Source: a virus. From it: a stretch of DNA of 64,000 nucleotides. This document shows, piece after piece, positions 54,472 through 57,080 of this stretch (positions are counted from its first letter, which is position 1; every line of letters begins with the position of its first letter). Under the pieces are notes generated by a model. That model was given only the letters and a program-made list of their open reading frames with translations. It did not search any database and was not told the DNA's origin. The stretch spans positions 32,001 through 96,000 of IMG/VR virus record IMGVR_UViG_3300009408_000003, one strand, 5' to 3'. A program made the position numbers and the translations under genes.

Positions 54472-54504
54472 CAAATATACGAAAAAAAAGTGAGAAATCC
54501 TAAT
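54472..54504 (-). promoter_or_regulatory. Phage early/middle promoter overlapping a terminator hairpin
   Basis: TTAGGA-N18-TATATTTG inside an AAAAAAAGTG/CACTTTTTTT hairpin. Confidence 0.7.
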
Positions 54505-54538
54505 TATATCCCACTTTTTTTATTTTTTTTTAAATTAA

Positions 54539-55471
54539 TTATTGGTATTCATAAAGTATTTTTAAAAGCTCACTTAGTGCTTCGTGTCTATGATTATCCT
54601 TTAAACTAACTGTAAATACATATTTAGATTCTTTCAATTTAGCTATTTCATGAATTGCTGAATCATTGTTATATTTTAAATCAATTTGATAATAATCGCC
54701 AGTTAGTATCATAGTTGAGTTTTTACCCAATCTACTAATAGCCATTCCTAACTGTTGTTTAGTTAAATTTTGAAATTCATCTACGATTACAATCGCGTTA
54801 TCAAAAGTTCTACCTCTAAAATGCGATAGTGAAACTAACTCTATATTTTCATCGCTTTCCATTTTTGCCAAAATTGCTGGTTTATTATAAACCTTTCTCA
54901 TGTTTGAACGAATAGGAACTAACCATGGCTCCATTTTTTCATTTAGTGATCCTGGTAAATATCCGTTATCTTCGTTTGATACCGTAGGTCTAGTTATAAT
55001 TATTTTATTTACATTTCGTTGGAAGAACTGATCTAGTGCAACTTGAACTGCTAAAAGTGTATTATGGTGAATTATTTTATTAGTAGTTTGGTATAAATGA
55101 GTTTTGTTATTAATTTCAAAATCAAATACTTTTTCGTTAGGTTGAATTTCTAAATTAGTAATTGTTGATTTTATTCCATTTGACTTAATTAAAGAATCAT
55201 TTATTTTTAAATCATTTACTGATTTACAATGTATTGTATCATAACAAATTTTATGATTTAATGCAGTTCTAAAAACTTCATTGCTAGTAGTTATTTTACA
55301 TATATCATCATGTTTAAAAATAATTCCGTTTATGTTTGTCCATTTATTTTTTTCGTCTTGTATTTGAATATTAGTTTTTTGAAAGTATTCTTTATTTTCT
55401 TCAAATTTAATATTTTCATATTTTTTAATCGCATCAAATAAATTACCAATTTCAATAGTTACTTTTTTCAT
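54539..55471 (-). CDS. phoH: PhoH-like ATPase C-extein preceded by a 137-aa C-intein
   Basis: ...VFDFEINNKTHLYQTTNKIIHHN then TLLAVQVA; ITRPTV, GYLPGSL, RGRTF, IVDEFQN, LTGD. Confidence 0.9.
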   Translation of the reverse strand: MKKVTIEIGNLFDAIKKYENIKFEENKEYFQKTNIQIQDEKNKWTNINGIIFKHDDICKITTSNEVFRTALNHKICYDTIHCKSVNDLKINDSLIKSNGIKSTITNLEIQPNEKVFDFEINNKTHLYQTTNKIIHHNTLLAVQVALDQFFQRNVNKIIITRPTVSNEDNGYLPGSLNEKMEPWLVPIRSNMRKVYNKPAILAKMESDENIELVSLSHFRGRTFDNAIVIVDEFQNLTKQQLGMAISRLGKNSTMILTGDYYQIDLKYNNDSAIHEIAKLKESKYVFTVSLKDNHRHEALSELLKILYEYQ

Positions 55472-55652
55472 ATTTTTTGTATAAATTTGAATTTAATAAA
55501 TTTTTCAATTTCGGATTAGCTAATTATATTTTAGTTTTTATTTATCCGATTTTTGCTGTGTTTTTGACTTTATTAAGGTAGTTGTTTTGAACCAAAAATT
55601 CATAAAATTTATCATCTATTTTAATATCAATTTCAGATTCATATGTAATACA
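55061..55652 (-). mobile_element. Naturally split mini-intein (IntN 55545-55652; IntC 55061-55471)
   Basis: Cys1 follows GSGK; HN followed by +1 Thr at the end; the halves are in separate ORFs with a 70-nt gap; no endonuclease. Confidence 0.85.
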
Positions 55653-55793
55653 TTTACCACTACCTGCTTTACCAGTTATAAAAGTATATGGATGTGTTAA
55701 TATTTTAGCCTTTGCTAATTTTTGTTCTTCTGATAATGTGATAGTAAATTTTACTTTGCTTTTAGGAGGTTGTTTTTTAATATTTTCCTTCAT
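55542..55793 (-). CDS. phoH: PhoH-like ATPase N-extein followed by a 36-aa N-intein
   Basis: LSEEQK...ITGKAGSGK then CITYESEIDIKID..., then stop. Confidence 0.88.
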   Translation of the reverse strand: MKENIKKQPPKSKVKFTITLSEEQKLAKAKILTHPYTFITGKAGSGKCITYESEIDIKIDDKFYEFLVQNNYLNKVKNTAKIG

Positions 55794-55833: not shown

Positions 55834-56190
55834 CTATTTTTGTAATGAAGTATTGTAGATTGTGCTAGTTTCACTACTATGCTGTTTATTTTTTATTTTT
55901 ATTATGTTTGCGCATTGTTCATAGTTTTCAATACTTTTAAAATAATTTAAACAATGGATTAATACTTCATCATAATTATTTTTTTCTATAATTACAACCG
56001 ATGATACATTGGGATGCACTAATAATATTATTTCAGATAAATTTTCATCTATTGCGGTATCAATAGCTTTAACTATTTGAGTAAATACATTATTACCACA
56101 TGATTTTATAAAATTACTAACACGTGGTTTATTGGTTGGATCTAAATATTTTCGCCAACCTACTCTTGAATATATATTTCTATTTATCAT
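55834..56190 (-). CDS. Hypothetical protein
   Basis: 118-aa ORF ending in an ENYEQCA motif. Confidence 0.6.
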   Translation of the reverse strand: MINRNIYSRVGWRKYLDPTNKPRVSNFIKSCGNNVFTQIVKAIDTAIDENLSEIILLVHPNVSSVVIIEKNNYDEVLIHCLNYFKSIENYEQCANIIKIKNKQHSSETSTIYNTSLQK

Positions 56191-56246
56191 ACGATTATAA
56201 ATATTAAAAATTATAAATAGTAATTAAATTAATTGTGATATTTGTC

Positions 56247-57080
56247 TTAATTTGCTTGTTCAAGTAGTACCCATTTTTTTCCAGTCCACTTATATAAGTT
56301 GCCAGTAGTATCAACTTGTCTAACTTCATCAACATAAGTACCACCGCTATCAAATGGAAAATATGTTCTTAATATTGATTTAAACTTTATTATATTGCTA
56401 CTGATACTAACTGATGCATCATTTGAATTTTTTACTGAAGTAATTGCAGTAGGTTCTGGTGTTGCAGTTTTAGGATTTCCGAGTACTAAATCTGAACTTA
56501 CTTTATTCAAATCAAGATTTTTCAATTCTTCTGAATGATCAAATCCAAGTTTACTAGTGGTTTCCACCAACCATCCACCAAAGGTAGAAACTGGTCTAAG
56601 TTTATCATCTGAACTTACTATCCAATTAATATGTTTTATAACAGATTCTTTATCATTTATCGTGTTTACCACACTAACTTCTGCATATTCTTCGGGTATT
56701 TTAAATTTAGGTAAATTCCAATATCTTGATAATTTAAAAAAGTCAATTTCAGCTATAGTTACATTATTTCTATTAAAAAACGGTTGATTTTGTTGAACAG
56801 CTTTATATAAGTCTCGCAAAAGAGCACTAGAAATCCAATCTTCAAATTTAGTTTTTTGTTCATCAATATAAAATCTAATGATAAATCTAAACGAAATTGT
56901 TGGATTGGTTTTTAGTGTACCTAATTTTAAATCATCTAATGGTACATTAATAAATTTTATAAAATTTTTGGGATATTTTCCAGTAAATTTAATTGAATCA
57001 TTATCTGCTGTATAAGAATTTTCGACAGCAATATTTTCTGGATATTTATCTCGTAATTCGTTTAATCCTTTATATTTCAT
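56247..57080 (-). CDS. Hypothetical protein
   Basis: 277-aa ORF preceded by ATATTTATA. Confidence 0.6.
   Translation of the reverse strand: MKYKGLNELRDKYPENIAVENSYTADNDSIKFTGKYPKNFIKFINVPLDDLKLGTLKTNPTISFRFIIRFYIDEQKTKFEDWISSALLRDLYKAVQQNQPFFNRNNVTIAEIDFFKLSRYWNLPKFKIPEEYAEVSVVNTINDKESVIKHINWIVSSDDKLRPVSTFGGWLVETTSKLGFDHSEELKNLDLNKVSSDLVLGNPKTATPEPTAITSVKNSNDASVSISSNIIKFKSILRTYFPFDSGGTYVDEVRQVDTTGNLYKWTGKKWVLLEQAN

Follow-up and report, generated by a model that had tools for sequence, protein, structure and literature searches.

The question raised by this locus is how two neighbouring ORFs of a marine phage, each carrying a part of the ATPase PhoH and separated inside the Walker A motif, could give one protein with an intact P-loop. 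The window analysed here is a stretch of 64,000 nt from a 120-kb IMG/VR phage record with a G+C content of about 27%. We concluded, with a probability of roughly 0.85, that a naturally split class-1 intein is located between Lys and Thr of the PhoH Walker A motif (GKAGSGK/T, where the slash marks the junction), that it is predicted to trans-splice to a 220-aa PhoH, and that it was probably derived from a fractured gene.

Two ORFs encode PhoH, broken within the Walker A motif

The gene phoH is encoded by two co-directional ORFs on the minus strand, with a gap of 70 nt between them (55541-55472). PhoH and the split intein are each present once in the 120-kb record. The features of the locus are as follows.

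55793..55545 (stop 55544-55542), minus strand: N-ORF, 83 aa; 47 aa of PhoH up to GKAGSGK, then Cys and 35 further residues
55653..55793, minus strand: PhoH N-extein, 47 aa, ending in GKAGSGK (Walker A as far as its Lys); collinear with the PhoH N-termini at the 57 related loci that lack the break
55652-55650, minus strand: Cys1 codon
55575..55652, minus strand: IntN core, 26 aa, with a b1-b2 hairpin (about residues 1-13) and a family-specific helix (about residues 14-26); delimited by modal length, invariant C1, DNA homology and predicted interface
55545..55574, minus strand: C-terminal tail of IntN, 10 aa, NKVKNTAKIG; absent from relatives and partly overlapping the endonuclease-gene relic
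55472..55555, minus strand: probable remnant of a free-standing homing-endonuclease gene (its 3' end), covering the 70-nt gap and the end of the IntN ORF; moderately supported by blastn and the gap alignment
55471..54542 (stop 54541-54539), minus strand: C-ORF, 310 aa; 137 aa ending in IIHHN, then Thr and 172 PhoH residues
55061..55471, minus strand: IntC, 137 aa, canonical b3-a1 onward; AlphaFold2 model, HINT-fold matches, invariant residues and profile matches
55255-55253, minus strand: block B His73 of IntC
55123-55121, minus strand: block F Asp117 of IntC (block F also has His125)
55066-55061, minus strand: block G His136-Asn137 of IntC (Asn137 at 55063-55061)
54542..55060, minus strand: PhoH C-extein, 173 aa, starting with Thr+1, the T of GKT; PF02562, PHROG 170
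55060-55058, minus strand: Thr+1 codon

The C-ORF matched the Pfam PhoH profile (PF02562) over profile positions 33-203 (E 1.6e-42; 145.8 bits against a cut-off of 27) and also PHROG 170, and its extein part showed 72-81% identity to intein-free PhoH of related phages. The N-ORF matched PF02562 over positions 6-34, weakly and under the gathering cut-off (E 0.15), and it was collinear with intact homologues. The two PhoH halves thus abut in the profile. With a score above the gathering level and a Walker A motif that is intact on joining, the product belongs to the PhoH-like ATPases.

With the C-ORF as query, IMG/VR yielded more than 600 PhoH relatives, and the best 80 loci were inspected for read-through. 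In 57 of these 80, PhoH was uninterrupted (..GKAGSGKTLLAVQ..; GKAGSGKT[LM][LV]A) and shared its N-terminus with the N-ORF; the putative homing site in intein-free phoH is GGTAAAAC(N). Because the 57 related loci read straight through, the insertion lies exactly between K and T of Walker A, and a chance pattern of ORFs is excluded. Joining the two extein parts restores GKAGSGKT as in the 57 relatives, and removal of the intein leaves a normal 220-aa PhoH. The first-pass annotation, which had described PhoH as two genes broken between GSGK and T, was correct to the base on this point, and the ORF coordinates also bore out its 70-nt gap, its 137-aa IntC ending in IIHHN and the Thr at which PhoH resumes.

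Stops were present in all three frames between the two ORFs, four of them in the frame of IntC, so no single indel could fuse the halves. Programmed read-through or frameshifting that would give a contiguous intein was rejected on the same ground. The stops also bear on whether the split is an assembly or sequencing artefact, the phage really having a contiguous mini-intein or an uninterrupted phoH. The locus is known from a single metagenomic record, and contiguous members of the same intein family do exist (P0007, P0010, P0027, P0076 and P0106). Against this stand the stops in every frame and the recurrence of the same stop-restart design, in which IntN stops at residue 25-27 and a conserved Met opens IntC, in independent assemblies from different samples. 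We regard an artefact as extremely unlikely.

No terminator-like site was found between the N-ORF and the C-ORF, and no Shine-Dalgarno sequence was evident upstream of either. About 25 nt past the PhoH stop, a hairpin at 54482-54514 (minus strand) with a 6-bp stem, including one G-T pair, and a 13-nt loop is followed by eight T; it is plausibly a weak intrinsic terminator, absent from the consensus-scan list. Upstream of phoH, ORFs of 277 aa and 118 aa (55834-57080, minus strand) look conserved in the same order at positions 497-1594 of L004, an intein-bearing relative described below. By eye, the N-termini of the two 118-aa ORFs are similar, which points to a local gene order kept upstream of phoH in both.

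The inserted parts have the fold and residues of a class-1 intein

IntC was modelled with AlphaFold2 together with 10 extein residues from a family alignment of 16 sequences, and the model had a mean pLDDT of 87.7. The leading Foldseek matches of the model were all inteins or bacterial intein-like (BIL) domains, with E down to 6e-6. In VIA-align comparisons the model was superposed on the TvoVMA intein with Z 12.0 (rmsd 2.9 over 135 residues) and on VidaL with Z 10.6 (rmsd 2.9 over 124 residues), and RadA (Z 10.9), PolB16 (Z 8.8) and gp41-1 (Z 8.5) were also matched. The alignment to inteins of the HINT fold extends over IntC residues 1-137.

The window's IntC scored E 0.29, under the cut-off, against the Pfam Intein_splicing profile (PF14890), which 19 of 117 relatives matched at E <= 1e-5. 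A profile of the family reached solved inteins at about 1e-6: gp41-1 at 1.3e-6, CatC (the consensus TerL IntC) at 1.4e-6 and VidaL at 1.2e-5. The profile of the short IntN, searched against the PDB, matched only the P-loops of ClpA and p97.

Among 14-16 aligned members, C1, K53, H73 (block B), D117 (block F), Y127, N131, I133, H135, H136, N137 and T+1 were invariant, and H125 was nearly so. C1, H73, D117, H136, N137 and T+1 were nearly invariant also across 117-150 library representatives. The full class-1 catalytic set is thus present, with block B reading A-x-x-H and not T-x-x-H. The first-pass reading had depended on IntC keeping the catalytic residues of blocks B, F and G, and H73, D117, H125 and H136-N137 are all in place in the HINT-fold model.

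The dN/dS ratio (Nei-Gojobori) was calculated between the window and three close alleles, which have diverged from it at dS 0.6-1.3. It was 0.20-0.25 for IntC, 0.21-0.39 for IntN codons 1-26 and 0.12-0.16 for the C-extein. These ratios indicate that IntN, IntC and the C-extein are all under purifying selection, which argues against a pseudogene and against an artefact.

Position of the split and predicted association of the halves

In every structural alignment, IntC residue 1 paired with residue 11-16 of solved inteins, so IntC is without strands b1-b2 only. The break is therefore at the N-proximal S1 site after b2, as in VidaL and PolB16, and the alignment of family-profile position 31 to CatC residue 13 is consistent with this. 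A break after helix a1 (the S2 site, TerL-like) was considered and rejected because b3-a1 lie in IntC.

The modal length of IntN across 14 family members was 26 aa with an invariant C1, and IntN reaches this length because a conserved 13-residue segment, a helix, follows b2. Residues 27-36 were absent from relatives in the family alignment. The IntN of 36 aa given in the first-pass annotation is accurate as encoded, but the conserved IntN is only 26 aa, and residues 27-36 are a tail that probably arose from deletion of an endonuclease gene. IntN is short by either count, next to an IntC of 137 aa.

Association was predicted for IntN with 10 extein residues against IntC. The complex scored 0.79 against 0.34 for the best control, although split-intein complexes are already among the solved structures and the score may reflect likeness to them and not independent support. 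Of the solved complexes 58 of 80 attain the mark used, as do 2 of 110 mismatched pairs; both counts are rough here because author-built alignments were used. Between prediction runs at least 78% of the contacts agreed, and the partner pLDDT was at least 66. In the model, IntN residues 6-12 lie between IntC residues 3-8 and 35-37, the contacts of IntN 16-26 with IntC 10-18 show helical spacing, and C1 is close to H73, to D117 and to the HHN-T junction. No IntN residue beyond 26 is part of the interface with IntC, which leaves the 10-aa tail outside.

Tight association predicted by the model would also be expected if the intein halves were only non-covalent docking domains and PhoH worked as a two-chain complex. 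A precedent is the split NrdA of phage Aeh1, a fragmented phage enzyme assembled via domains derived from a mobile element (PMC3045599). Docking alone, however, would not select for splicing residues (C1, the block B His, the block F Asp, HN and T+1) that are invariant across many exteins, and an insert of 173 aa that stayed unspliced would lie within the phosphate-binding loop, separating K from T of GKT. We consider docking without splicing very unlikely. The reading supported in silico is a Cys1/Thr+1 atypically split intein on whose trans-splicing an intact Walker A loop depends, because the HINT fold, the conserved catalytic residues, purifying selection, the recurrent split and the docking model all agree with it.

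Related split alleles and the history of the gap

A search with IntC alone gave no viral or metagenome contigs, as its peptide patterns were too allele-specific, and a query with the family alignment succeeded. The closest split PhoH alleles, with their identity to the window (C-ORF, tblastn), were as follows.

L084: IntN 26 aa, IntC 137 aa, 77% identity
L087 (the same locus as L004): IntN 26 aa, IntC 137 aa, 76% identity
L085/L086: IntN 27 aa, IntC 137 aa, 73% identity
L088: IntN 25 aa, IntC 138 aa, 51% identity

Ten further loci had the same split design in ClpA-like, clamp-loader and helicase genes. The two intein parts are thus found on separate polypeptides in independent genomes, in L084-L088 and in these ten loci.

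The halves in L084 and L087 are separated by an ORF of 357 aa (361 codons, stop to stop) whose stop codon shares bases with the ATG of IntC. L088 has a homologous ORF of 378 aa from the first Met (406 codons from stop to stop), and the Clp-like, clamp-loader and helicase loci likewise have homologous ORFs between their intein halves. In three ClpA-like loci (L093 2407-3372, L095 2279-3457 and L097 2237-3385) the intervening ORF is on the strand opposite to the host gene, so there is no translational coupling to IntC, unlike the apparent coupling in the PhoH loci.

Searches of Pfam, the PDB and PHROGs with the intervening ORF of the relatives gave no significant sequence match. Its fold model was of low confidence (pLDDT 66.5). 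The EDxHD enzyme I-Bth0305I (3r3p) was the second Foldseek row for this weak model, the first with a compact domain (E 0.07; TM 0.52, target-normalised; 79 columns), and Vsr (1vsr) was lower in the list for the C-terminal domain. The intervening ORF of L114 had a weak match to DUF559 (E 0.023). The intervening ORF of the relatives probably encodes, by this model-based likeness, a Vsr-like (EDxHD) homing endonuclease.

Nothing similar to the intervening ORF was found in the window's 120-kb record, where the gap is only 70 nt. The earlier statement that the locus has no endonuclease is right for the window, but close relatives carry an endonuclease-like ORF between the halves. DNA homology between the window and L084/L087 runs through IntN to about codon 26, breaks, resumes in the end of the endonuclease ORF and continues into IntC; the collinear blastn match covers the final 75-87 nt of that ORF in L087/L084. 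A local alignment of the gap alone to L087 was collinear, ended 11 nt before the IntC ATG and scored 41 against 28.1 +/- 3.5 for shuffles (maximum 40; 0 of 300 reached the score; z about 3.7). The homology is short and AT-rich, and against L084 alone it was not significant. Much of the gap and the IntN tail are probably a relic of the 3' end of the endonuclease gene, for which these matches give moderate support. Most likely, the window allele lost about 1 kb that included the original IntN stop, and the loss would have added NKVKNTAKIG.

Other alleles without the endonuclease gene were found, with gaps of 28 nt (L085/L086), 113 nt (L094) and 30 nt (L103). An exact search for the window's deletion junction in viral and metagenome contigs found no second contig; this leaves the exact allele without independent support but, as records of its own genome may be absent from these sets, does not count against it. 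In L101 (2498-2653), an IntN of 42 aa that includes a 16-aa Gly/Ser/Pro-rich tail is followed by a gap of 844 nt; judging from the sequence, IntN would here too have been extended by read-through into the region between the halves, the second such case.

Because the 10-aa tail was found in no relative and the junction in no second contig, the window allele might splice less well. In the strongest form of this argument the locus is decaying: deletion of the endonuclease gene extended IntN by 10 aa, the halves splice poorly and PhoH is being lost. In favour of this, the window's record alone has the tail and the exact junction, and the intein is sporadic among PhoH alleles, most relatives being without it. 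However, both ORFs are intact with all catalytic residues kept, and dN/dS is about 0.2 in the intein parts and 0.12-0.16 in the C-extein over a divergence of dS 0.6-1.3. The tail lies outside the predicted IntN-IntC interface, and GOS-TerL is active with an IntN of 37 aa that can be trimmed to 27 (PMC11766414), so such tails can be tolerated. Alleles without the endonuclease gene also persist (L085/L086, L094 and L103). Decay appears quite unlikely to us, and a trans-splicing intein is the reading that we prefer.

A different phoH gene, of the PIN-PhoH (PhoH2) type, is also fractured in a huge phage (L119 1029..127, minus strand; L001 51..2364, LR756500.1, a 462-kb uncultured phage). Its break is three residues upstream in the P-loop (..GKAG/C... 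and ...SSHN/TGKT) and its IntN has 26 aa. A 430-aa ORF between the halves, which resembles the L004 intervening ORF by eye, overlaps the start of IntC.

A wider intein family at the Walker A junction

The family profile was searched against 1.84 billion representatives of clusters at 50% identity. It matched 2583 proteins at E <= 1e-3, 509 at E <= 1e-10 and 46 at E <= 1e-30. IntC began within the first 20 residues, as in the split form, in about 124 of the best 150 representatives and was internal in 26. Seven inspected internal members were contiguous mini-inteins after G-K, most of them with an extra helix, or after G-E in the RecA-like P0097; the five contiguous members named above belong to the family. 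In P0010, a 919-aa ClpA-like protein with the intein at about residues 495-643, an 8-residue linker replaces the IntN helix directly before the conserved Met of IntC, and this sequence suggests that in P0010 the parts of a split intein were fused again through a deletion.

A clear C-terminal motif was present in 85 members. Their +1 residue was T (75 members), S (9) or C (1), and 77 of the 85 ended in HHN. The exteins of 117 members were scanned against Pfam. The following families, all of them P-loop NTPases, were counted among the 117.

Clp-type AAA_2: 19 members
ResIII helicases: 13 members
RecA: 8 members
Clamp loaders: 5-6 members
PhoH: 5 members
DnaB: 4 members

Judged by these profile matches, the window's element is one member of a large, mostly split family that is located nearly always at GK/T of P-loop ATPases. 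A literature search of partial coverage found no description of a split PhoH intein or of a P-loop split-intein family. We tentatively propose, at somewhat less than even odds, that a large family (509 clusters at E <= 1e-10), undescribed in the literature searched, homes to the Walker A GK/T of unrelated P-loop NTPases (Clp, UvsW-like helicases, RecA, clamp loaders, PhoH and DnaB), is mostly split at S1, and uses an amphipathic IntN helix after b2, docking on IntC a1, as a built-in capture handle. If this is true, the family would supply many natural and possibly orthogonal short-IntN inteins, whose visible junction needs only Lys at -1 and Thr at +1.

Comparison with known split inteins

The layout is close to the fractured genes of environmental phages described by Dassa, London, Stoddard, Schueler-Furman and Pietrokovski in 2009 (PMC2677866). 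L084, L087 and L088 have exactly that layout, with an endonuclease-like ORF between the intein halves, whereas the window allele has lost the endonuclease gene. Since only a relic-like gap of 70 nt is left, the window is a derivative of a fractured gene and not a strict member of the class. PhoH and Clp are not mentioned in PMC2677866, where all but one of the split inteins have an IntN of 88-105 aa, in contrast to 36 aa in the window. Half of these fractured genes carry Vsr-like homing endonucleases (PMC2677866; PMC3239194), and for the intervening ORF of our relatives membership in the Vsr-like/EDxHD class is only suggested.

An IntN of 15-37 aa is found in the natural split inteins AceL-TerL, GOS-TerL, VidaL and PolB16 (PMC13014065). 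The reviews consulted list no other characterised natural split intein whose IntN is peptide-sized, and these four are prized for semisynthetic protein labelling. VidaL (16-aa IntN; PDB 6vgv) and PolB16 OarG (15-aa IntN; PDB 8cpn/8cpo) are broken at S1 after b2 (PMC13014065, PMC10189870), and they have the split position, the fold and the phage or metagenomic origin in common with the window's intein. Identity to them is, however, just about 15-18%. The IntN core of the window is longer (26 aa), with a 13-residue helix after b2 that is modelled to pack on IntC a1, and its insertion is at GK/T of the P-loop. PolB16 further differs in having Ser1/Ser+1 where the window has Cys1/Thr+1.

AceL-TerL and GOS-TerL, with IntN of 25 aa and 37 aa, and their consensus Cat (PDB 6dsl) are like the window's intein in being naturally split, with a short IntN, in phage genes. 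By the family profile, Cat ranks with gp41-1 as the closest solved relative (CatC E 1.4e-6; with the helicase member L116, E 1e-4). GOS-TerL also has about 10 dispensable extra residues in IntN (PMC11766414). The TerL inteins are, however, broken after helix a1 (S2 site; PMC13014065), whereas b3-a1 of the window are in IntC, and they have Cys+1 and are located in terminase, in contrast to Thr+1 and PhoH in the window.

PhoH itself is a known intein host, with 21 inteins in Actinobacteria and Deinococcus-Thermus in Table 1 of Novikova et al. 2016 (PMC4760082), and the same paper names the P-loop as a hot spot of intein insertion in DnaB, MCM and RFC. The bacterial PhoH inteins are described there as contiguous, and nothing in the passages on them marks them as split, unlike the window's intein. 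Inteins with Thr+1 are listed in a table of PMC11766414.

The proposal in the first-pass annotation of a new atypically split Thr+1 intein thus held in part: the short IntN and Thr+1 are upheld in silico, but the type is not new, as short IntN, fractured genes and Thr+1 have all been described. The locus adds a real case to an arrangement that is rare but already known, and is not a new kind of intein.

Proposed mechanism and implications

The following steps are drawn from the complex model, the conserved residues and the established class-1 pathway, and cover the two chains, the insertion of IntN and splicing. The two co-directional genes, 70 nt apart, would give two polypeptides. The IntN hairpin (residues 1-13) would insert between the first strand of IntC (3-8) and strand 35-37 and complete the HINT fold, and the IntN helix (14-26) would pack on IntC helix a1. 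Cys1 would then form a thioester, and attack by Thr+1 would give a branched ester. Cyclisation of Asn137 with the help of His136, followed by an O-to-N shift, would release the 220-aa PhoH with an intact P-loop. The ancestor was probably a fractured gene with a free-standing homing-endonuclease gene between the halves, and a deletion of about 1 kb probably removed this gene and left the relic in the short gap and the 10-aa tail of IntN.

Current concepts are unchanged by the PhoH locus. It is a candidate short-IntN split intein with a Cys1/Thr+1 pair and an S1-type break, well supported in silico, and its hundreds of natural relatives could be mined for fast or mutually orthogonal pairs. Alleles with the endonuclease gene, with a relic of it and without either would represent stages in the life cycle of a fractured gene. 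The Walker A loop would offer a common landing site through which one intein family could pass from one ATPase gene to another, unrelated one, and PhoH, a common auxiliary gene of marine phages, can in this way be made dependent on post-translational ligation.
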